Source: an uncultured Bacteroidota bacterium
GTDB taxonomy: Bacteria; Bacteroidota; Bacteroidia; 2-12-FULL-35-15
Length of the DNA: 34,108 nucleotides
Assembly: GCA_903881065.1 (NCBI GenBank)
Contig: CAIRRW010000506.1
Coordinates: 1-34,108 of the forward strand
Direction of reading: 5' to 3'
Below, one piece after another: positions 22,634-33,650 of the stretch (the stretch's first letter is position 1; each line of letters opens with the position of its first letter). Under the pieces are notes generated by a model. That model saw only the letters and a list, made by a program, of their open reading frames with translations, made no database searches and was not told the origin of the DNA. The position numbers and the translations under genes were made by a program.

Positions 22634-24316
22634 TTAATAATTTATCTCGTACAGATAAGCAGGTTCGTCAGTTCCTTCCGTTTTCAGAAGTTTCAATTTT
22701 TCAGGATATTTCTGAACTACAGGTCCAAGCATTCGTTGAATAGTATTAATAATTCGTCCGTTGTTTTTCTTTGGATTCTGACGCAGGTTAGGCATTATAA
22801 CGTATTTCACATTTTCTTTTTTCCAATCCATCAGCACCGTATCTGCATTCTCGGAATTTACAATATACTGACCAACAAACTTTTTGCCCTTACCATATAT
22901 AAAACTCATGTTAGGTTTGCGCGATAATACCTGTGCATCTTTCGGCAAGCTGTCGGCACAGTACTTACTAAGTTTAAGGAAATTTTCCCAATCAGGAGTG
23001 TATCCATAATACATATCTCCACTCATATTTTTCTTTAATGCAACGAAATTTTGTTTCGCATTAATACTTGATTTACCTAAGGAAATAACCAGCATAACGA
23101 TTGAAAACGCGATGAAGAAAAATTGTAATGTCGAATTTCGTTTTGCAAATTCATACATTCCATAAAATAGTACCAGAAAAATAAGGGGAATGGCAATTAT
23201 AATTAATCGCGACTGCATGTTGTTTGCCTGAACACCAAAAAATACGCCACCTACAAGAGCAATCAGATAAATGCTAGAGAAGAAAATAAATTTATTTTTC
23301 TTGTAACTAAAGAATGTAAATACCGCAAGAATTATTGTAGATACAAATGAAAGTGCAGGTAAAGGAGTAATTGTTTCACCATCTAGAACCTCTATGCTGC
23401 CAATCAACCGGAGGTTAAAAATTCGATACATATGATAGGAAACGTACGTATTAAAATTAGCGAAGAAGCGGTCTATCATTCCACCCATATCTTCATGTCC
23501 ACCTTCTGGTTTATACAAGTCTTTTCGTAACATTAGTTCCAGTTGATTTGAATCATTGGCTCCATACATTGAAGTGGTAATTAACTGGTAGATGCCACGG
23601 AATACAAGGTAAGCGGCGAGTGCATAAACGATTTGCTTATAGTTTTTATTTAATAAGAAGTAGAGTAAAACCCCTGCAATGGTAACAAAAGCAATACTCT
23701 TGGAAATAGTTAATACAACAAACATCAATCCGAACAGCAGCCATAATTTATAGTTCTCCTTGAAACCTTCTGCCCATCCTGCTTTCTCGTTGATGTTGTC
23801 AATAATATTAAAGGTGATGTACAAACAGATAGATTGAACAAATAGAAAAAATGTTTCGGTATAGGTCTGACTGGCATAATACTGAACGAAATTATTCACA
23901 GAAATAAATGCAATCAACGCGAAAAGAACAGTATATGGTATGCGTTTGCGGAAAGTGAGATACGTTACCCATACAAAACCGAACTGACAAAGAACAGATA
24001 GAAATTTAAGAGCAACAATATTTAATCCGAATATTCTCATGAAAAAAGAAAGTATCACAGGATAACCTGGCCCTTGAAAATAAGGGAACTTGCCTTCGTT
24101 TATCAACGACCATGCTCGTTCAATATAACTGGAATCATCCCCACCTAATGACACTTTGGAATCGAACAAAAGCAAAGTAAATAATGTAGAAAGAAATAAT
24201 ATTGAGTAAAATACTTTCTTGTCCCTGGCTTCTAGCCATTTATTTAAATTGTCCAGCATACCTGTCTTAACTGGTTGCGAATTTTTCTTATTTGCGGGTT
24301 GATTCTTTTTAGACAT
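22634..24316 (-). CDS. Polytopic membrane protein, probable GT-C (ArnT/PMT-like) glycosyltransferase
   Basis: GGDDSSY after first TM, PGYPVILS, YTETFFLF, SRLIIIAIP, and a small C-terminal soluble domain (VLSRKP...VKYVI). Confidence 0.65.
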   Translation of the reverse strand: MSKKNQPANKKNSQPVKTGMLDNLNKWLEARDKKVFYSILFLSTLFTLLLFDSKVSLGGDDSSYIERAWSLINEGKFPYFQGPGYPVILSFFMRIFGLNIVALKFLSVLCQFGFVWVTYLTFRKRIPYTVLFALIAFISVNNFVQYYASQTYTETFFLFVQSICLYITFNIIDNINEKAGWAEGFKENYKLWLLFGLMFVVLTISKSIAFVTIAGVLLYFLLNKNYKQIVYALAAYLVFRGIYQLITTSMYGANDSNQLELMLRKDLYKPEGGHEDMGGMIDRFFANFNTYVSYHMYRIFNLRLIGSIEVLDGETITPLPALSFVSTIILAVFTFFSYKKNKFIFFSSIYLIALVGGVFFGVQANNMQSRLIIIAIPLIFLVLFYGMYEFAKRNSTLQFFFIAFSIVMLVISLGKSSINAKQNFVALKKNMSGDMYYGYTPDWENFLKLSKYCADSLPKDAQVLSRKPNMSFIYGKGKKFVGQYIVNSENADTVLMDWKKENVKYVIMPNLRQNPKKNNGRIINTIQRMLGPVVQKYPEKLKLLKTEGTDEPAYLYEINY

Positions 24317-24584: not shown

Positions 24585-25667
24585 CTATTTTATCAATGCC
24601 AATCCTTGCAATGCTGATGTATCACCAGGAGCAAGCATTAATACTTTATTAAACAAGAGTTTAGCTTCTGCTGTTTTGCCTGTTTTGAAATTTGCCCATG
24701 CGTATAATATTAAACCATCGTAACTAAAAGGATATAGATTTACTACTTTCTCGAGATATTGATAAGCAGCGGAATAATCGTTTTTTGAATAATAATAAGA
24801 TCCAAGACCATAATTCGCAAAACTATTTTGAGGATTTATTTCAACAATTTTCTTGTTTTGTTTGCTTATTTCATCATAGTTACCTAATGCACCTAGCGGA
24901 TAATTGATGCCAAAGCGAGGTTCAATAGAATTTGGCTTTAAGTCAATTGCTATCTGATAATATTTAATCGCCTCCTTATTAAGCCCTGAAAGGTAATTTA
25001 ACCATCCCATACGCAAGTTAACATCATAATATTTAAGATCGTAAATGTCTTTTATTGAAGTTATAGCGGAAGCATAATCTTTTTTATATTCAAAATCATA
25101 ACTTTTCGCAAATGCAGCAATTACTTTATCGCTTTGCTTCTCCGACTTGTTTATCTGTTGCCAGGTGTCTCTTAAATAAGGCTCATAACCGGAAGGATAT
25201 AAACTAATTATCTTCTCGAATTGTTTTTTGGCTAGGTCATAGTTCTTTTTGTTGTAATAAATATAGCCTAACTGATAGTTGGAATTAACATCAAGCGGAT
25301 CAACTTCCAATATTTTTTTATAAACTACTTCTAATTCATCCATTTGATTTTGTGCATAAACAGGATAAATGAGTCCAGTTTTTGCTTCAATGGAATAAGG
25401 CATTAATTTAACAGCATTTTGGTAATAAGTAGCAGACTCCTTATTCTTTCCTGCTTTATAGTACAACCAGCCCAACCGAAGATTCTCTTCGTAAGAAGTA
25501 GTTTCATAACTATCCATAAGCGCTTTTATTGCGCCATCATAATCTTTATTTTTTTCAGCTGCATAACTTTTAGAAAAAGCACTTGCCAACTTAACATTTT
25601 GAGCAAACGAATTGTTGATACTCAATAAGAGGATACCTCCGATAATAATTTGTTTGATTTTTTTCAT
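24585..25667 (-). CDS. Secreted TPR protein with an internal ~155-aa tandem duplication
   Basis: Signal peptide ending SFA-Q; TPR patterns (NLRLGWLYY, NYQLGYIYY); AFSKSY at aa 30 recurs as AFAKSY at aa 185. Confidence 0.85.
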   Translation of the reverse strand: MKKIKQIIIGGILLLSINNSFAQNVKLASAFSKSYAAEKNKDYDGAIKALMDSYETTSYEENLRLGWLYYKAGKNKESATYYQNAVKLMPYSIEAKTGLIYPVYAQNQMDELEVVYKKILEVDPLDVNSNYQLGYIYYNKKNYDLAKKQFEKIISLYPSGYEPYLRDTWQQINKSEKQSDKVIAAFAKSYDFEYKKDYASAITSIKDIYDLKYYDVNLRMGWLNYLSGLNKEAIKYYQIAIDLKPNSIEPRFGINYPLGALGNYDEISKQNKKIVEINPQNSFANYGLGSYYYSKNDYSAAYQYLEKVVNLYPFSYDGLILYAWANFKTGKTAEAKLLFNKVLMLAPGDTSALQGLALIK

Positions 25668-25684: not shown

Positions 25685-27217
25685 TTATTTATTTGTAAAT
25701 TTATTAAAGTTTTTAATTCGTATTCCAATAAAAAAACTGTTGTAATAATAATTAAGTGTTACAGGTAAATTTGTTCGTTTATCTGCAGGAACGGGCAAAG
25801 TAGTTAAATTGTTTTCATAGGTGTAAATTGCAAAAAAGTCAAGATGCTTTCCTGCAGGAATATTGCCAATAATTGAAAGTCGAGAAAGTGTTTTATCTGA
25901 TGAATTATTTATGAAAAGTCCGTTCCCTTCAATAATATTATTATTTGTATCGTCTTTTTGTTTATCATTAAAATCAACCAAATAGTTTAATGTAAACGAA
26001 ATCTTACTAGTAGGCATAAATGTAATATAAGGTGATATTGCTGCCCTTCCTTCAGCCGAATCAATAGTATAAACATAGTGTGCATCACATCCAATTACAA
26101 GTCGGTTATTACCAAATGGGGCATAGGATATAGAAAGAGTACTCTGTACCCTCTTAGTGTTGTTAATATTTGAAAAAGTATTTCCAAGAGCTAAAGATAG
26201 ATTGGAAATGTATTTCGAGACAGTAAATGCCTCAACAAAATAACTACTATGTGAGGTTGATTGTGAACTTAGTAATTTTGGGTTGAATGGTACTTCTACA
26301 ACTGTAGGAGGACCCATAGGAGGATGACCAATAATAGTACCAAATACAGTATTTTCTGTTTTGTGAAGAATATTACTACTAATATAATGTACTGCTGGTG
26401 ATATACTCCAATTTTTTTTTAAAGGAATATTTGCTCCCAGATAATATTGATATTGATTGGTAATATCGTCATTATTATTTATTATTGGTGCAGAAAAATG
26501 GTTGGTTGAATTCACTGGAAAAGGAGGAGGGTCGTGTAAATCAAAAGTTTTAAAGCCATGATTATAATGCGAACTTTCCTGATTAAAATAGGTAAAGGCA
26601 TGAAATAAATAAATCCTATTCTTTACGTAATGCCCCAAAGCAACCTGAAAATACTTGGCGGTGGAATAATGGATTGAATCAGTTTTATTTACAGTAATTG
26701 AATCATTATTGCGAATATTATTTAATTGTTCAGGATGTGGGTTTTCTAAATAAGATGAACTTGGCTGTTTAACACCACCACTCATCTGTATTAAAGCTAG
26801 TGATGATATTTTATCTATTCCTGTTTTAGCTATCAACTCGGTATCAAATGACTTACTTAGAACTCGCGCATCAACATATCTGCCTGAATAAATATAACAA
26901 TAGTATAGATATTCTTTCGAAAGATTATCACCTGAATAAAACGTTAAAGCCTTCTGAAATTGTTTAGTGGCAAACAGATATTTTTTTTTCTCATAATAAG
27001 CAATCCCGAGTCTCAAACGCAAATAGTAATAATCAAAATCCTTTTTTATTGCTTTGTTAGAGAAGGTAATAAGTTCGTTCCAATTCTTGTCAATATAAAG
27101 CTGATAAGATTTTTTTTCAACAAAGGCCGTATTTAGTGTGTCTTGGGCATAAGTTTTCCCTAAAGTAAAAATGAAAAGTAAGATAATTATTCTCCGATAT
27201 TTTCCGCTGAAATCCAT
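25685..27217 (-). CDS. Exported protein with N-terminal TPRs and probable C-terminal outer-membrane beta-barrel
   Basis: Signal peptide ending TYA-Q; YYYLRLRLGIAYYEKKKY TPR; later alternating aromatic/polar strands (YQYYLGANIPL, WSISPAVHY, LDFFAIYTY, FFIGIRI). Confidence 0.65.
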   Translation of the reverse strand: MDFSGKYRRIIILLFIFTLGKTYAQDTLNTAFVEKKSYQLYIDKNWNELITFSNKAIKKDFDYYYLRLRLGIAYYEKKKYLFATKQFQKALTFYSGDNLSKEYLYYCYIYSGRYVDARVLSKSFDTELIAKTGIDKISSLALIQMSGGVKQPSSSYLENPHPEQLNNIRNNDSITVNKTDSIHYSTAKYFQVALGHYVKNRIYLFHAFTYFNQESSHYNHGFKTFDLHDPPPFPVNSTNHFSAPIINNNDDITNQYQYYLGANIPLKKNWSISPAVHYISSNILHKTENTVFGTIIGHPPMGPPTVVEVPFNPKLLSSQSTSHSSYFVEAFTVSKYISNLSLALGNTFSNINNTKRVQSTLSISYAPFGNNRLVIGCDAHYVYTIDSAEGRAAISPYITFMPTSKISFTLNYLVDFNDKQKDDTNNNIIEGNGLFINNSSDKTLSRLSIIGNIPAGKHLDFFAIYTYENNLTTLPVPADKRTNLPVTLNYYYNSFFIGIRIKNFNKFTNK

Positions 27218-29385
27218 TTATCTTTTTCCTTAATTGTAAACTTTGATATTCTATTGTTAGATAATTCCAACTCGAAATTAATTTCTCTGTTATTTCCTCC
27301 TACAGCTTTGGCAATAGCGTTAGAAGCAATCTTTATTTTTGTAGGGTGTTGATAGTCGTCAATTTCTTTAAATGTGGATGAGTATTTTGCTTTTAGGAAT
27401 ATAGAGAATGGTGCAATAAAATCCTGCAGTGTTTTTATAATGCCAGGATAGAATCCGCTTATCGGTAAAGCATCAGTTACCTTCATTTCGTGGAAATAGC
27501 TCAATAAAACTTTATGTGTTCCCAAGTAGAAATAATAAAGTAAAGAGTCAGTATCACCTTTAAATGAAGTAAAATAATGCAGTGTTTCATTATTCACAAA
27601 ATAAGCAATTGATTTTGTTTGGTGACAATACATATAAGTTAGGTTTGCCGAATCGACAAATACTTCCCATTTCACTTTTGATTTCTTATCACCATTCGTC
27701 ACTTCAAACTCCATAACCATTCCTGGTGTAAAATGAAATGCTTGAGTCAATAATGGAGTAGGAGTAGTCCTGAATATTTGCTGACCCTCCAAAGGATAAT
27801 CGAAGGAATGAAATTCGTATTTATTATTTTGTTTTGATACATAATATGCAATAGGATATTTCAATGTCTTCGCCCCAACAAACTCAGTTGACTGAAGTTG
27901 GAAATGAATATGCGGTTCAGGCGAACGGCCTGAATTACCACAATTAGCAAGGATATCACCTTTCTTTACATAATCTCCAATTTTAACTTTAAAACTATTT
28001 GCTTTAATATGACTTATCTTGCTGAAAAAATAATCACCATGTTTTATTACTATTGAATTGCCCCAGTTTTCTCCAAGATTCACATCTCCAATAGCATTAT
28101 CTTCTATTCCATCCACAAGGTTAATAATGTAACCTGCACAAGGAGCGAGGATCGGCAATGAATAACAAAAGAAATCTGAAACTTCTTTTCCTGGAAGTTT
28201 AAATGTTTTTTGTGTTTCATCTGTTACTACAAAGTCCCAAGCGTAGCGATAATCTTCCTTGTGAGTTATTTCTCCTTCATGCGCCTGCGATACAAACCAT
28301 TGTCCATAAAAAGGAAGATGAATATGAAAATAAGTGTCATTTTTAAATCGCTCCAAACTATTAGTATAGGCATATAAATTCTTTTCAGGGGAAAACTGCT
28401 GGTATTGAACAAGGTTAAGTTTGTGCACGAAATACCTATTGTTCAATGTGAATATTATTAAAATAACTACTAGTGAAAAAGGAAGAGAATATAATGGCAA
28501 TTGAAAAACTCCAATCATATTTCCTAACGCACTTATCATTAACCCTACCAAAGGAACAGATATTAATGCCCATAAATAGGAGCGAGTAGAAGCAATTAAA
28601 AAATATCCACCGATGGCAATTGCAGATAAAATATAATTAAAACCTATATAACTATATTCCAGTTCAGATAAATTCCCTTTGACAAAATAGCAAAACAGAT
28701 AACCGGTAAAGAAGCCTACAATAGAAAGTGAAAATGCAATGCGCGAGTATATAAATAATCCAATCATTATTAATAACCCTGATATAATATTGTATTGAAA
28801 GAAGATTGCTCCTAATGATTTTAGATATACTTCAGCAAGTAATGGGAATTTCCAAGAGTTTGTTTTTTCATAAATATTAACGAGTGTCGCTCCTCCAATA
28901 TTCCATAATTCATTGAAAGAATAAATGCTTCTTTCACTTAATTGTAATGCTCCAAAACTTCGTGAACACAGAAGAATCATCCAAATGCCTATTATGAAAG
29001 GCAAACTTAAAAATGGAACTTTATAAGCTGAAAATACGGATGCAATTGAAACAGTAAGAATAAGTGTTAGGAAAGAAGCGATTAGTAGCATCACGAAAAA
29101 TGGTATGGTACAATGGAAAAATATTCCCATCGCAAGACCAGTAAGTAATGAATTGTAGCTGTATGTTCCACTTCGGATTATAATTGGATTAAGACCTAAT
29201 AGTTTTGCGAAAAAGATAGAAGAAAGTGCACAGATAATCCCGCTTAATCCGGTAAAAGGATCAATAAAAGAGGCAGCAATAACAAAAAGTGCAAGCCAAA
29301 TGTTGTTCGAAAACAACATTTGGCTGTAACTATTTGTTATACTATCTCTATAAAACTTTACCTGCTCTTTTACGCTACCCTGCAC
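27187..29385 (-). CDS. Urea-transporter-family-like membrane domain fused to an M23 (DD-metalloendopeptidase) domain and a C-terminal unknown domain
   Basis: Two-repeat membrane half: SYSQMLF..N / SGTYSYNSLL / PFLSLPF and SLGAIFFQYN / GFNYIL / PLYSLPF. M23 motifs TH...YAWDF, PILAPCAG, WGNSIVIKH, SHI, GNSGRSPEPHIHFQ. GTG start 3 nt after the upstream stop. Confidence 0.8.
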   Translation of the reverse strand: MQGSVKEQVKFYRDSITNSYSQMLFSNNIWLALFVIAASFIDPFTGLSGIICALSSIFFAKLLGLNPIIIRSGTYSYNSLLTGLAMGIFFHCTIPFFVMLLIASFLTLILTVSIASVFSAYKVPFLSLPFIIGIWMILLCSRSFGALQLSERSIYSFNELWNIGGATLVNIYEKTNSWKFPLLAEVYLKSLGAIFFQYNIISGLLIMIGLFIYSRIAFSLSIVGFFTGYLFCYFVKGNLSELEYSYIGFNYILSAIAIGGYFLIASTRSYLWALISVPLVGLMISALGNMIGVFQLPLYSLPFSLVVILIIFTLNNRYFVHKLNLVQYQQFSPEKNLYAYTNSLERFKNDTYFHIHLPFYGQWFVSQAHEGEITHKEDYRYAWDFVVTDETQKTFKLPGKEVSDFFCYSLPILAPCAGYIINLVDGIEDNAIGDVNLGENWGNSIVIKHGDYFFSKISHIKANSFKVKIGDYVKKGDILANCGNSGRSPEPHIHFQLQSTEFVGAKTLKYPIAYYVSKQNNKYEFHSFDYPLEGQQIFRTTPTPLLTQAFHFTPGMVMEFEVTNGDKKSKVKWEVFVDSANLTYMYCHQTKSIAYFVNNETLHYFTSFKGDTDSLLYYFYLGTHKVLLSYFHEMKVTDALPISGFYPGIIKTLQDFIAPFSIFLKAKYSSTFKEIDDYQHPTKIKIASNAIAKAVGGNNREINFELELSNNRISKFTIKEKDKWISAENIGE

Positions 29386-29388
29386 AAT

Positions 29389-30747
29389 TTATAATTTGAA
29401 ATCTTTTAAATATTTTGGCGTTACTTCGTCTCCCTGAATACTATTTAATGTTTCTCGGTTCCTTATAATATGAGCTTTTTCTTCCATATCAATCATTATA
29501 ATTGCCGGTCGCAATGCAATAAACTGCATCCATTGTGTCATATTATACGCTCCCACTGTATGCACTACCACATGGTCATCTCGTTTTAATGGTGGCAAGG
29601 TAATGTTTTCACGAATAACATCAATATTCATACACAATGGGCCATACAATACAGCGTCTTCGGTATATTGGCTAAACTCCTGTGCCGGACTAACTTTATG
29701 GTCATACCAGAAAGAAGTGAATAAAATATTTACTCCGAAATCCATAATTGTTGCACGTCTTCCATCTGCTAATCGTTTGTTCGAGATAACTGTTCCTAAC
29801 AATGATCCTGCTTCATCTATTAACGCCCGTCCTGTTTCAAGTATTAATAAAGGTAACTCGTTCTCAACAAAACCTGCATTTAAAATCGCTGTAGTTATTG
29901 CTTCAGCAAACTGATCAAAGGATGGAGAAGAGTCCGCACCTTGTAAATACGAGCCTTTTAGCGTGTTTTTAGATGCAAAACCTCCACCCATATCAATGTA
30001 TTCAACATTCTTTTTATATTTCTTTTTGATGCTTAAAGCAAGTTCCGAAAGTTTGGAAGCTGCCACACCGTAAGCACTAGGAGCCAACATAAATGTTCCT
30101 ATATGTGAATGCAAGCCTACTAAATCCATAGTGTCATTCAACATTATTTTGTTGATGGCATCCCAAGCCTGTCCATTCTCATAGTTGAAACCAAATCTGT
30201 CCCACATCGGATATACTCCAGTGTCCATATTCACTCGTATTGCTACTCTAGGTCGCTTTTTGGCATTTGTTGCCAACTCTTTTATCAAATATAATTCATC
30301 TAAATGATCAATATGAATCAATGAATTATTCTCAATAGCAAGTTTTAATTCTGCTTCTGTTTTATCTGGACCGTTAAAAATAATCTTATTTCCCGGTACC
30401 CCATTATGTAAAGCTTTGTTGTATTCAAAACCCGATACAACCTCCGCCCACGAACCTTCTTGGTGAAATACATTACAAACTGCATTGTTGTAATTCGTTT
30501 TGTACGACCAGGCAAACTGCACTTTAGGATAACGTGTTTTAAACGCTCTATTCGCATCTCTTAAAGTCCTGCGGATGGTCTTTTCGGAGATTACAAATAA
30601 TGGTGAACCATATTTATTTATAAGTTCTTCTACCGAATTCCCATCAATATGAGTTACCGGTGCGTATTCAGTTTTCTTTCCGAATTTGTTCATTACCCCA
30701 ACGTTCAAACGTTGTATTACGGGGCGTTCATACTGTAGTCTTTTCAT
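29389..30747 (-). CDS. Fold-type III PLP-dependent decarboxylase (LysA/ODC superfamily), substrate probably not DAP, with N-terminal extension
   Basis: YGSPLFV, WSYKTN (PLP Lys), IIFNGPDK, HSHIG, DMGGGF, ETGR, GPLC, VGAY. ATG 30747 preferred over TTG 30771. Confidence 0.88.
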   Translation of the reverse strand: MKRLQYERPVIQRLNVGVMNKFGKKTEYAPVTHIDGNSVEELINKYGSPLFVISEKTIRRTLRDANRAFKTRYPKVQFAWSYKTNYNNAVCNVFHQEGSWAEVVSGFEYNKALHNGVPGNKIIFNGPDKTEAELKLAIENNSLIHIDHLDELYLIKELATNAKKRPRVAIRVNMDTGVYPMWDRFGFNYENGQAWDAINKIMLNDTMDLVGLHSHIGTFMLAPSAYGVAASKLSELALSIKKKYKKNVEYIDMGGGFASKNTLKGSYLQGADSSPSFDQFAEAITTAILNAGFVENELPLLILETGRALIDEAGSLLGTVISNKRLADGRRATIMDFGVNILFTSFWYDHKVSPAQEFSQYTEDAVLYGPLCMNIDVIRENITLPPLKRDDHVVVHTVGAYNMTQWMQFIALRPAIIMIDMEEKAHIIRNRETLNSIQGDEVTPKYLKDFKL

Positions 30748-30830
30748 ATTCTGTATTGTTATATTGTTCAATGGTTATATTGTTGTTGTGTCACTTGATT
30801 TTCAAATTAGCACATTCAAAAATTTAATCT

Positions 30831-31880
30831 CTATAATTCTCCTAAAGTTGAAATCTTTTCAAACTCTTCTAACTCTACAATTAAATCGTATGAATATCTA
30901 ACAAATAATTTACCCACATCATACTTTTTAAAAGGTTTTACATCTTCACCTAATGCCAGACTTACCAATGCTTCCGGATGGTTTTGTCCACAACCTACTG
31001 CCAGGTAAACCCATGCTGGGAAACGAGGATTAATCTCCAACAAATAATAATCACCTTCATTGGTTTTAATAATCTCTAGTTCCATACCACCTCTCCATTT
31101 ACAGCCTTTAAAAAGCTTTTTCGTCATATCCAGCAAGTTTTTATCATCCAGTGATATACCTGACCATGCTTTCCCTTTGTCTGTAATGTACTGTTTACGC
31201 ATCGGTACAGCACCTATCACATTTCCTTTGCCGTCTCCTATGGCTGTTACATTTACTTCCTGGCCATATACCATTTCCTGAATGATAATTGGCAAGCCCC
31301 ATTTAGCGCTTATCTTATTGAAATAAGTGGCAGCTTGTTCAGGTGTATAAGCAATCGAAGCATCATAAAATTTACCTTTAACAACTAATGGATAAGTAAA
31401 TTCATCTTTAAGTGCAGGTATTTCAGCAGTACTGAAAATCATTTTTCCATACGGAACTTTAATGCCGTGTTTCCTTCCATACTCCGAAAGATTTGCTTTG
31501 TGACGCTCCTCAAACTGTTCCAAAGTAGGTAGAAATGTTTTTATCTTCATTTCCTTTTTTAACGTATCCGCCAACGTGATAAAATTATAAAGCTCAGCAT
31601 CAAAGTTTGGAATCAATACATCAATCTTTTCTTTTTCATGTATATATTTCAATCGTGTAAGCAATGCAGCCTTTCCTGTCGATGGAAATGGAATCTGGTA
31701 TGTTTTGTCAACAAGATCATGCATATAAATACCCGGCTCCAATGTCTCATACGAAAGCCCAATGATGCGTACATCATATAGTTTACTTTCTTTCAATGCA
31801 CGTATTACCGGCACTCCCGGGCCGGGACTGTCAATGGCATTTAAGCCGGTAACAGCTACATTAATCTTTTTTCTTTTCAT
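30831..31880 (-). CDS. ATP-grasp ligase (stand-alone, CarB-like single domain)
   Basis: VAVTG...GPGVPVIRAL pre-ATP-grasp start, IDVLIP, YPLVVKG, IIIQEMVYGQE, MELE, YLLEINPRF. Confidence 0.9.
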   Translation of the reverse strand: MKRKKINVAVTGLNAIDSPGPGVPVIRALKESKLYDVRIIGLSYETLEPGIYMHDLVDKTYQIPFPSTGKAALLTRLKYIHEKEKIDVLIPNFDAELYNFITLADTLKKEMKIKTFLPTLEQFEERHKANLSEYGRKHGIKVPYGKMIFSTAEIPALKDEFTYPLVVKGKFYDASIAYTPEQAATYFNKISAKWGLPIIIQEMVYGQEVNVTAIGDGKGNVIGAVPMRKQYITDKGKAWSGISLDDKNLLDMTKKLFKGCKWRGGMELEIIKTNEGDYYLLEINPRFPAWVYLAVGCGQNHPEALVSLALGEDVKPFKKYDVGKLFVRYSYDLIVELEEFEKISTLGEL

Positions 31881-32121
31881 CGTTTTCTGTAAGTTTTATT
31901 TTACTTAACATCTCCACAAAGTCGAAATAATCTTTTTCAAAACTTACCTCATCTATCATGTATAGTTTTACAATGGCAGCTTTTATTTCCTGAGGAGTTT
32001 TCTCTTCCTTAAGCATTTTTATTATCTCCAACCCTATCGGATTAGTTGAATAGGAGTCGCCTGTTGATGGATCAAATACAAATCCCGAATCGCTTAATGC
32101 TACGTTTCTTTTTATTTTCAT
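31861..32121 (-). CDS. Stand-alone PqqD-family protein (RiPP recognition element fold)
   Basis: 86 aa with the PqqD pattern FVFDPSTGDSYSTNPIGLEIIKML...TPQEI...IVKLYMID...DYFDFVEML; overlaps the ATP-grasp start by 20 nt. Confidence 0.85.
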   Translation of the reverse strand: MKIKRNVALSDSGFVFDPSTGDSYSTNPIGLEIIKMLKEEKTPQEIKAAIVKLYMIDEVSFEKDYFDFVEMLSKIKLTENDEKKKD

Positions 32122-32209: not shown

Positions 32210-32905
32210 CTAATTAGCTAAATGGCGCATTGCATCCTTCCTGTATTTATTACCAATCGGAATCTCTCGTCCGGCAATTGAAATGATTCTGCTTTTTACA
32301 TTTTCGATTCTATTCAGAGGAATAATATATTTACGATGAACACGTATAAATTCATTCGTGTTTAATTTCGATAGCATCATTTTCATAGTAAGTCGGGTAG
32401 TTATCCGCTTCTGATTCTGCAGGTAAATATTAATATAATCTCCCAGTGATTCAATATAAAGTATATCCGAAAGTATAAACTTCCTCAATCCATAATCAGC
32501 ACGCAGAAACATATTTGGTTTTTCTTCTGCATTATTGCTATTCAATTTAATGTTGTAATTTAAAATAGCTTTATTCAACGCTACAGATAATCTGTCTTCC
32601 GAATAAGGTTTTAGCAGAAAGTCAATAGCATTCATGTTATATGCATCCACAGCAAGGTCTTTTGTTTCCGAAACAAAAATAACCATGGTGTTTAGCTCCG
32701 ATAATAATCTGAAATCAACCCCCGAACCTTTTGCCATCTCAATATCTATAAACAGCAAGTCAACTGGCGATTTGTGCAAATATTTCAGTCCTTCATTAAT
32801 AGTAGTAAATAGCTTTTTGAGTTGAAACCTTTGCGAATCAATACACCCTTTTTCTATAATTTCTTTAAACAAAGGTTCTTTATCTATAATTATGGCTTGT
32901 AACAT
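32210..32905 (-). CDS. LytTR (LytR/AlgR) family response regulator
   Basis: REC domain DLLFIDIEM...AIDFLLKP; LytTR domain DILYIESLGDY...FIRVHRKYII...IPIG. Confidence 0.92.
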   Translation of the reverse strand: MLQAIIIDKEPLFKEIIEKGCIDSQRFQLKKLFTTINEGLKYLHKSPVDLLFIDIEMAKGSGVDFRLLSELNTMVIFVSETKDLAVDAYNMNAIDFLLKPYSEDRLSVALNKAILNYNIKLNSNNAEEKPNMFLRADYGLRKFILSDILYIESLGDYINIYLQNQKRITTRLTMKMMLSKLNTNEFIRVHRKYIIPLNRIENVKSRIISIAGREIPIGNKYRKDAMRHLAN

Positions 32906-33047: not shown

Positions 33048-33650
33048 TTAATCCAACAGCGAATTCAGAGATTTTCTGTCCTTTTTACCCAGATTTTTAT
33101 AGTCGCTTACCGTATAGCCTGTAATCTGTTTAAACTGATTGCTCAAGTATTGAACACTGCTGTATCCCATAAAATAAGCTATTTCACTAAGCGTATATTC
33201 ATCATAGCTTATCATCTCCTTTATTTTCTCCGCTTTTATAAGTATAATATATTTCTCCAAAGTCATTCCGGTAGTTTCCGAAAACACCTTGCTCAAATGC
33301 TGATACGATTGTTGCAGCTTCTCACTCAAATAATCCGAATTCTTGATCAGCGAAGTATTATTATTACCATAAAAAACAAACTGAATCACTGTAGTCTTTA
33401 TCTTTTCCACCAGCTTTTTATTCGTATCCCGCAACAGTTCGAAACCATTTTTTTTCAGAATCTCATTCACCACATCCAAATTAAATACCTGCGTATCCAG
33501 CTGAATCTCCGCTTCACCCAAGCTCACATTTATCACTTCTATAAACCCCGTCCGTTCCAGTTCCTGCCGCACTAGTTTAATGCAACTATCACTCACCATA
33601 TTTTTAATATAGATAATCGTTCGTGTAGTATTGAAGTTATGTTTTTGCAT
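33048..33650 (-). CDS. AraC-family transcriptional regulator with N-terminal HMA-like domain
   Basis: IYIKNMVSDSCIKLV...LGEAEI...GFELL HMA-like start; YQHLSKVFSETTGMTLEKY, LSEIAYFMGYSSVQYLSNQFKQITG AraC HTH. Confidence 0.92.
   Translation of the reverse strand: MQKHNFNTTRTIIYIKNMVSDSCIKLVRQELERTGFIEVINVSLGEAEIQLDTQVFNLDVVNEILKKNGFELLRDTNKKLVEKIKTTVIQFVFYGNNNTSLIKNSDYLSEKLQQSYQHLSKVFSETTGMTLEKYIILIKAEKIKEMISYDEYTLSEIAYFMGYSSVQYLSNQFKQITGYTVSDYKNLGKKDRKSLNSLLD

Follow-up and report, generated by a model that had tools for sequence, protein, structure and literature searches.

A lasso-leader-type motif at the N-terminus of a PLP-dependent decarboxylase, a likely ligand of a discrete RiPP recognition element

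A compact gene module from an uncultured Bacteroidota bacterium encodes a full-length decarboxylase dependent on pyridoxal phosphate (PLP) whose own N-terminus resembles the leader of a lasso peptide. We propose, with a probability of roughly 0.65, that this N-terminal tail is a leader-type recognition sequence carried in cis and the likely ligand of a discrete PqqD-family protein encoded in the same module, a recognition element (RRE) of the type known from peptides that are made by the ribosome and modified after translation (RiPPs). The module lies on contig CAIRRW010000506.1 (assembly GCA_903881065.1, lineage 2-12-FULL-35-15), which was analyzed as one stretch of 34,108 nucleotides (nt), henceforth termed the window. 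RREs serve to mine peptide natural products irrespective of class, and where no precursor lies close by, an RRE commonly counts as unsolved or false. In this case a full-length PLP enzyme probably supplies the RRE ligand with its own N-terminus; the module concerned is conserved in 160 loci and patchily distributed among close relatives (6 of 41). We predict binding between the PqqD protein and the tail because the two co-occur, the RRE retains residues that bind Tyr and Pro of a leader, the tail Tyr covaries with an RRE Asp, the tail is conserved yet disordered, no free precursor was found, and a complex prediction lends weak support. If confirmed, such binding would extend RRE-leader recognition beyond peptide maturation to enzyme assembly or enzyme-borne carriers, and a class of orphan RREs would be accounted for. 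An uncharacterized pathway of an ATP-grasp ligase, a decarboxylase and a urea-transporter/M23 protein, which probably yields an amine or a compound like a polyamine at the cell envelope, would become accessible as well.

In open reading frame (ORF) and profile scans, the module appears as a compact minus-strand row in the order PqqD protein, ATP-grasp ligase, decarboxylase, urea-transporter/M23 (UT/M23) protein, a protein of 510 amino acids (aa) and a tetratricopeptide repeat (TPR) protein, with genes that overlap or are closely spaced. The elements on which the argument turns are the following.

31861-32121, minus strand: discrete PqqD-family RRE, 86 aa (PF05402, 30.3 bits against a cut-off of 23.4)
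30831-31880, minus strand: ATP-grasp ligase, 349 aa (PF15632, 39.7 against 29.1; PF02655, 26.3 against 23.2)
29389-30747, minus strand: fold-type III PLP decarboxylase, 452 aa (PF02784 and PF00278)
30715-30732, minus strand: decarboxylase tail block 1, Y6-E-R-P9-V-I11, of the lasso-leader type [Y/W/F]xxPx[ILV] (148 of 148 unique tails)
30679-30699, minus strand: decarboxylase tail block 2, G17-V-M-N20-K21-F22-G23 (counts in the 148 unique tails are given below)

A conserved N-terminal tail on the decarboxylase

A sequence-only reading of the window had placed the motif YERPVI at 30732-30715, within an extension ahead of a LysA-like core. Translation confirms these coordinates. The decarboxylase N-terminus reads MKRLQYERPVIQRLNVGVMNKFG, with residues 1-23 at 30747-30679 and Y6-I11 at 30732-30715; the minus-strand ORF 30771..29389, which opens with TTG, holds an ATG at 30747 that gives MKRLQYERPVIQRLNVGVMNKFGKKTEY.... 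Nearly all of the best 120 database homologues (82-95% identity) have 452 aa (range 448-461), a Met stands five residues before the aromatic residue of the motif in 99 of 148 unique tails, and in all 80 genome loci described below the protein begins four to five residues ahead of [YF]ERPx[ILV]. Since homologue lengths and Met position agree, we take the ATG at 30747 as the start, which places the motif within the translated protein. Both the lysA profile and the structure of the decarboxylase FslC (7kh2) align to the enzyme only from residue 32-33 onward, and residues 1 to about 30 are therefore an extension, as had been claimed.

The enzyme behind this extension scores 218.4 with the lysA profile (TIGR01048; equivalog cut-off 297.9) and 237.6 with the FslC profile (NF041039; cut-off 500). 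Because it falls below both cut-offs, it is neither a lysA nor an FslC enzyme. Its core holds the invariant residues K83 in SYKTN, H213, GGG254-256, E304-x-G-R307, C372, D376 and Y401, to which we presumptively assign the catalytic roles usual for such enzymes. An AlphaFold2 model of the monomer, built from 70 sequences, has a mean predicted local distance difference test (pLDDT) value of 89.4, whereas residues 1-30 form coil at pLDDT 46-58.

To follow the tail through homologues we used 80 genome loci with close orthologues and 80 metagenome loci with more distant, still tailed enzymes, 160 in all; the latter set was fetched with homologues 46-61% identical to a Proteobacteria-labelled representative, including two exact copies of it. 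Tails were extracted from 158 loci (L067 and L174 were left out) and reduced to 148 unique sequences. The motif [YF]ERPx[ILV] is present in 80 of 80 genome loci, and the tails of the metagenome loci are alike, with Tyr, Trp or Phe in the first position. Counted from this aromatic residue as position 0 (Tyr6 in the window), conservation among the unique tails is as follows.

Position -3: K in 130 of 148, R in a further 11
Position 0: aromatic in 148 of 148 (Y 125, F 12, W 11)
Position +1: E in 136 of 148
Position +2: R or K in 142 of 148
Position +3: P in 148 of 148
Position +5: I, L or V in 148 of 148
Position +11: G in 131 of 148
Position +14: N in 134 of 148
Position +15: K in 146 of 148, within G-x-x-N-K-[FY]-G
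Position +16: F or Y in 142 of 148
Position +17: G in 140 of 148

Conservation of YxxPx[IL]...KFG among homologues, one part of the check for which the sequence-only reading had called, comes out in its favor, with aromatic, Pro and aliphatic positions kept throughout and Lys(+15) in all but two unique tails. Conservation of the tail matches that of the catalytic core, and high conservation in a segment predicted to be disordered is the usual signature of a partner-binding short linear motif. The published leader motif [Y/W]xxPx[L/V/I/F/A] fits the tails, except that Phe, which comes first in 12 of 148, lies outside the published first-position set. Representatives at 38-48% identity, drawn from a library of 1.8 billion proteins, show Y-E-x-P-x-[ILV] or a Y-E-P-P-x-hydrophobic variant.

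Other residues of the tail were considered as well. Lys3 (30739-30741) is the conserved K/R at position -3, seen in the tails of L027-L186, and the StsA-StsC recognition sequence KPxWxxP, as given in passages of PMC12710340, has a Lys at the same spacing before its aromatic residue. A Lys-Glu staple of the graspetide type was dropped as an explanation of the tail, since Glu27 (in TEY) is kept mainly in Bacteroidota-group loci and diverges in distant ones. Glu7 was likewise rejected as acceptor, since 12 of 148 unique tails, mostly from lineages with a Trp-type tail, have V, I, L, Q or T in its place.

The PqqD-family protein as candidate reader of the tail

Searched alone, the PqqD protein of the window finds the lasso-peptide B1 protein TbiB1 as best match in the PDB (8.3e-6). 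A profile of 63 orthologues matches TbiB1 at 1.1e-12, TfuB1 at 3.1e-7 and PbaB1 at 2.1e-4, and genuine PqqD at 0.053. The own genome, a 551-contig draft of 96.8% completeness, holds no PF05402 gene other than that of the module. How B1-type proteins grip their ligands is described in passages of PMC13381572 (Nat Commun 2026): the leader motif [Y/W]xxPx[L/V/I/F/A], likewise defined in PMC10368454, is held in a cleft between the RRE sheet and helices, where LppB Asp70 forms a hydrogen bond to the leader Tyr hydroxyl, Asn33 fixes a kink at the leader Pro, and Phe74 divides the cleft into two pockets. According to the same passages, complex formation is weakened by D70A and all but lost with N33A. 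In a HMMER alignment to 9x8z_B, residues N27, D64 and F68 of our protein fall on N51, D88 and F92, which are LppB N33, D70 and F74 at a constant offset of 18. Among the 63 orthologues N27 is invariant, and D64 and F68 are each kept in at least 90%. Because these residues match those with which LppB binds its leader, the RRE retains the machinery for a YxxP ligand.

The gene order PqqD, ATP-grasp, decarboxylase, UT/M23 recurs in genome and metagenome sets. A PqqD gene was found in 135 of 160 loci. Where the sequence extends 1500 nt or more upstream of the decarboxylase, it is present in 134 of 134; the 25 loci in which it was not seen all fall short of 1500 nt there, so that their contigs end too early for the gene to show. 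The module spreads over the Bacteroidota group and other, more distant lineages, some of them labelled Proteobacteria, and comprises four to six genes. Among 41 relatives, the tailed decarboxylase and the PqqD profile occur in the same 6 genomes, and we therefore regard the module as an accessory unit that is gained and lost whole. As for the expectation that the motif would be confined to operons with a PqqD gene, the part that could be followed held: every tailed homologue with readable context has PqqD, a result that covers tailed homologues. One genome (G007) carries two diverged copies of the module (C71 and C126; L022 and L026), whose decarboxylases are 88% and 70% identical to that of the window.

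The tail and the RRE also vary together. Covariation was computed from 133 paired sequences, 128 distinct pairs of which entered the mutual information, and the residue at tail position 0 pairs with that in PqqD alignment column 64 as follows.

Tail Tyr with column 64 Asp: 114
Tail Phe with column 64 Tyr: 6
Tail Phe with column 64 Ser: 5
Tail Phe with column 64 Asp: 0 (0 of 11 Phe cases)
Tail Trp with column 64 Asp: 7
Tail Trp with column 64 Asn: 1

The normalized mutual information between the two positions is 0.79 and exceeds the best value of each of 248 variable columns of the decarboxylase core. The pattern makes chemical sense, as loss of the Tyr hydroxyl is accompanied by loss of its presumed Asp partner.

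We further predicted a complex of the PqqD protein (63-row alignment) with tail residues 1-45 (68-row alignment). Modelling of the peptide on the RRE, another check named in the sequence-only reading, lends weak support: the interface score ipSAE is 0.44 (0.45, 0.44 and 0.44 in the separate runs), while the best of three controls scores 0.00. At least 77% of contacts agree between runs, and partner pLDDT is at least 52. Of 80 solved complexes, 58 reach the mark for such scores, as do 2 of 110 mismatched pairs, but in the range of ipSAE up to 0.60 only 7 of the 80 solved complexes do so, together with both passing mismatches.

The RRE might instead serve a free, very short precursor that was missed, either because it lies elsewhere or because it is too short or divergent, with the decarboxylase tail competing with it or mimicking it, for example as a regulatory decoy. 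A precedent for oversight exists, as passages of the preprint PMC13622209 describe a 21/22-residue YxxP precursor of fosfazinomycin that escaped routine ORF searches, and in response to this warning we scanned 129 loci for ORFs of 10-70 aa with the motif near their start. The module strand was no richer in such ORFs than the opposite strand, and their sequences were unrelated. When ORFs of 12-100 aa in and around the module were clustered across the fetched loci, nothing emerged but PqqD itself and shadow ORFs that lie over the ends of genes. Across all six frames of the own genome, [YF]E[RK]Px[ILVM] matches 12 times, once in the tail and 11 times inside long ORFs or in short frames without a tail-like continuation, and hence in no credible precursor. 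Residues 1-40, used as a query against short database proteins, retrieved 8 hits, all single-member and probably decarboxylase fragments, with no precursor family among them; seven come from contigs of at most 2.2 kb or have no contig listed, and one (P0311) lies on a 114-kb contig. A PDB search with the 40-residue tail returned no match at E up to 10, leader chains being too short for the tool. The earlier statement that a separate small precursor ORF is absent is upheld by these searches: as far as sequence comparison reaches, neither the module nor the own genome nor the protein database yielded a short precursor gene, although very short or divergent peptides could escape. The draft state of the genome and the TetR-fused RREs of two metagenome lineages described below, which hint at sensing, speak for a missed peptide or a decoy. 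The concordant outcome of the scans and the compactness of the module, with its overlapping or closely spaced genes, speak against it, and we regard this explanation as improbable.

Several points weigh against the tail as RRE ligand. On the decarboxylase core tree, about two coupled changes that arose independently suffice for the covariation: the Phe lineages make up a single grade at the base of the Bacteroidota-group clade, and a sign test on two independent pairs is not significant. The passing complex score may reflect learned likeness, because RRE-leader complexes have already been solved. Co-occurrence of tail and PqqD is established one way, from tailed loci. Lys(+15) is missing in the distant relatives P0123, P0127 and P0155, which argues against an acceptor Lys that is required throughout. 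A natural fusion of ATP-grasp ligase and decarboxylase (P0129, 871 aa, from a cluster of 4 members) keeps YVRPSI at the junction, where a tether would seem redundant, and has Arg instead of Lys at +15. Finally, fold-type III decarboxylases are obligate dimers, and given that our model is of a monomer, the tail could pack on the second subunit.

The last two points, along with the low complex score, also favor an explanation in which the tail is intrinsic to the decarboxylase, as a dimer-swapped arm, an active-site lid or an autoinhibitory segment; its likeness to lasso leaders would then be coincidental, and PqqD would bind something else, such as a segment of the ATP-grasp ligase or an unseen peptide. 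Yet FslC, the nearest structural relative, and the lysA profile have no such tail, the RRE keeps three residues that bind the Tyr and Pro of a YxxP leader, and the exchange of tail Tyr for Phe goes along with loss of the RRE Asp. The module also offers no other accessible conserved motif, as the remaining conserved matches belong to a transmembrane helix or to strands within the folded ATP-grasp and M23 domains. We consider an intrinsic role of the tail unlikely. The central proposal of the sequence-only reading, that the PqqD protein binds the enzyme's own tail, has the support of several independent lines of computation.

Possible roles of the contact and the surrounding genes

If the tail is the RRE ligand, the discrete RRE would, as a first step that we hold to be probable from sequence comparison, bind Y6-E-R-P9-V-I11 in the way lasso B1 proteins bind their leaders. 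The tail would be added as a strand in the β3/α3 cleft of the RRE, with Tyr6 in the first pocket and its hydroxyl bonded to Asp64, Pro9 held by Asn27 and Phe68, and Ile11 occupying the second pocket. By analogy with lasso, PQQ and other RRE systems, the RRE would then deliver its ligand to a partner enzyme, here the ATP-grasp ligase. Discrete RREs figure as substrate-delivery subunits for an enzyme in passages of PMC12710340 and PMC10368454, the latter of which presents lasso Thr(-2) as a residue read jointly by RRE and partner enzyme. The G-x-x-N-K-F-G block of the tail lies beyond the usual RRE footprint, and the spacing of 15 between Tyr6 and Lys21 equals that between Tyr(-17) and Thr(-2) of lasso leaders. 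For these two reasons, and by the same analogy, block 2 with Lys21 is probably read by the partner enzyme. The near-invariant Lys(+15) favors some role beyond RRE docking.

What follows delivery can be drawn in two ways. The contact may only tether the decarboxylase to the ligase, whose product would be passed on, an option about which we are doubtful. Alternatively, in a reading that borrows from BtrJ/BtrK and that we hold to be only slightly likelier, the ligase could acylate the Lys21 amine, upon which the decarboxylase would work on the appended amino acid. In a full and rather speculative version of the latter, the RRE would present Lys21, the ATP-grasp ligase would acylate it via the distal carboxylate of an amino acid, in the manner of BtrJ with its carrier, the PLP site of the same dimer would decarboxylate the appended residue, in the manner of BtrK or FslC with tethered substrates, and a putatively cytoplasm-facing M23 domain would set free either the product or the modified tail, which the channel would then export. 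If true, leader, carrier and tailoring enzyme would be one polypeptide in an RRE-guided, RiPP-style pathway. The proposed binding predicts specific contacts (Tyr6-Asp64 and Pro9-Asn27/Phe68), and the carrier version predicts a mass shift at Lys21.

Concerning the partner enzyme, the genes of PqqD protein and ATP-grasp ligase share a 20-nt overlap in the window and overlap or abut in most loci, and the P0129 fusion shows that ATP-grasp ligase and decarboxylase work together. The AlphaFold2 model of the ligase (pLDDT 93.8) has 2pn1 as its best Foldseek match (E 1.4e-19, TM 0.76/0.86), and its structural relatives, which besides 2pn1 include biotin carboxylases, the L-amino-acid ligases RizA and 3vot, PurK and PylC, are generic and point to no particular substrate.

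The RRE itself occurs in other settings. Two metagenome lineages encode a 266-aa protein with an N-terminal TetR domain (PF00440) and a C-terminal PqqD domain (PF05402; L107:4051-4848, the same in L108, and L114:1497-2294), which suggests that the RRE can also serve a transcription regulator as its sensor. When longer PqqD proteins were sought by profile, only P0296 (164 aa) and P0297 (361 aa) came up, which are weak evidence either way; P0297 joins an N-terminal PqqD part to an ATP-grasp part with an internal piece missing and is possibly an assembly or frameshift artefact. The TetR fusions, which couple the RRE to transcription control, and the disordered, terminal nature of the tail would also suit a purely regulatory contact, in which PqqD acts as an on/off switch for the decarboxylase or governs its stability, the ATP-grasp ligase taking no part. 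Such a role has little to commend it in our judgement, since it leaves the conserved NKFG block unexplained, the overlapping or abutting genes of RRE and ligase are typical of partner proteins, and the discrete RREs in the passages cited above deliver substrates to enzymes (PMC12710340, PMC10368454).

Regulatory genes are found near the module. Directly upstream of the PqqD gene lie a LytTR-type response regulator (32210-32905, minus strand) and a small AraC-type regulator (33048-33650, minus strand); the closest relative (L021) has ORFs matching both in the same position, and response-regulator or LytTR-like genes also stand beside the module copies L022 and L023. The remaining module genes follow the decarboxylase.

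27187-29385, minus strand: membrane protein, 732 aa, with a urea-transporter-like channel and an M23 peptidase-like domain (PF03253, 8e-60; PF01551, 1e-12)
25685-27217, minus strand: 510-aa protein with a signal-peptide-like N-terminus and no family match, a conserved module member in Bacteroidota-group loci
24585-25667, minus strand: TPR-repeat protein with a signal-peptide-like N-terminus, the conserved last gene of the module

In nearly all loci of sufficient length, the UT/M23 gene comes after the decarboxylase. Extra DNA of 0.8-3 kb separates the two in L092 (8359-11453), L062 (8359-9312), L087 (7501-8368) and L069 (7880-8667). In the UT/M23 protein, a PHxHFQ motif and an SH motif are conserved, but the alignment shows no evident HxxxD spacing of the kind usual for M23; about 230 aa at the C-terminus match no known family. 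Just downstream of the module, a gene at 22634-24316 (minus strand) encodes a multi-pass membrane protein of 560 aa with a weak match to PMT_2 (glycosyltransferase family 39-like).

Comparison with known systems

The closest likeness of the recognition part is to lasso B1-leader pairs (TbiB1-TbiA, 5v1v/5v1u; TfuB1/FusB1, 6jx3; PbaB1, 9x90) and to LppB-LppA (9x8z). As in these, a discrete PqqD-family protein of about 85 aa is paired with a [Y/W/F]xxPx[ILV] ligand motif, the Asn on β3 and the Asp and Phe on α3 are conserved, and the spacing from Tyr to Lys(+15) corresponds to that from Tyr(-17) to Thr(-2) in lasso leaders, as far as set out in passages of PMC10368454. Unlike in lasso systems, a 452-aa PLP enzyme and not a short precursor bears the motif, at its N-terminus, and the partner enzymes are an ATP-grasp ligase and a decarboxylase. 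The own genome has no lasso B2 protease (PF13471), and no lasso cyclase was found among the nine window proteins scanned, a genome-wide search for PF00733 not having been made. Without a B2 protease, without a cyclase among its genes and without a free precursor found, the module is not a lasso, PQQ or conventional RiPP cluster. We found no published description of a PqqD/ATP-grasp/decarboxylase/urea-transporter/M23 combination in the literature; the supplementary RRE groups of PMC12710340 may list this RRE.

Fosfazinomycin biosynthesis, as outlined in passages of PMC13622209, combines a YxxP motif in FzmZ with a discrete RRE, builds a small molecule on the peptide and has an ATP-grasp enzyme in its cluster. 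In contrast to our module, FzmZ and the pearlins on which PEARL enzymes act are free peptides (21/22 residues) that are built upon at the C-terminus, whereas the sole candidate site here is an internal Lys.

Precedents for RiPP substrates or leaders that belong to a full-size enzyme or descend from one are OphMA and the NHLP/Nif11-like leaders. In the borosin OphMA, the core lies at the C-terminus of a methyltransferase that modifies itself with no RRE. NHLP leaders, enzyme-derived according to PMC12537861, are inactive enzyme relics; the decarboxylase of our module, unlike them, retains all invariant core residues. In neither precedent does an active PLP enzyme carry a YxxP leader that a discrete RRE reads.

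Among enzymes, the closest solved structure to the decarboxylase is FslC, the N-citrylornithine decarboxylase of rhizoferrin biosynthesis (7kh2, E 4.4e-58), which also provides the closest NCBIfam profile (237.6 bits). The substrate of FslC, as the enzyme's name implies, is an amino acid with an acyl group already on the distal amine. It differs from our enzyme in being tail-less, aligned from residue 33, and our decarboxylase lies far below the profile cut-off of 500; the module, moreover, has no siderophore-synthetase partner. The pairing of an ATP-grasp ligase with a fold-type III decarboxylase is shared with butirosin biosynthesis, in which BtrI, BtrJ and BtrK are carrier protein, ATP-grasp ligase and a PLP decarboxylase that acts on carrier-bound glutamate. 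BtrK structures (7ru7 and 2j66) are among the PDB matches (2e-23), the former under the title L-glutamyl-[BtrI acyl-carrier protein] decarboxylase, although our enzyme shares little identity with BtrK and lies closer to FslC. Unlike the BtrIJK pathway, the module shows no acyl or amino carrier protein family among the nine window proteins scanned. Any carrier here would be the Lys of the enzyme's own tail, presented by the RRE.

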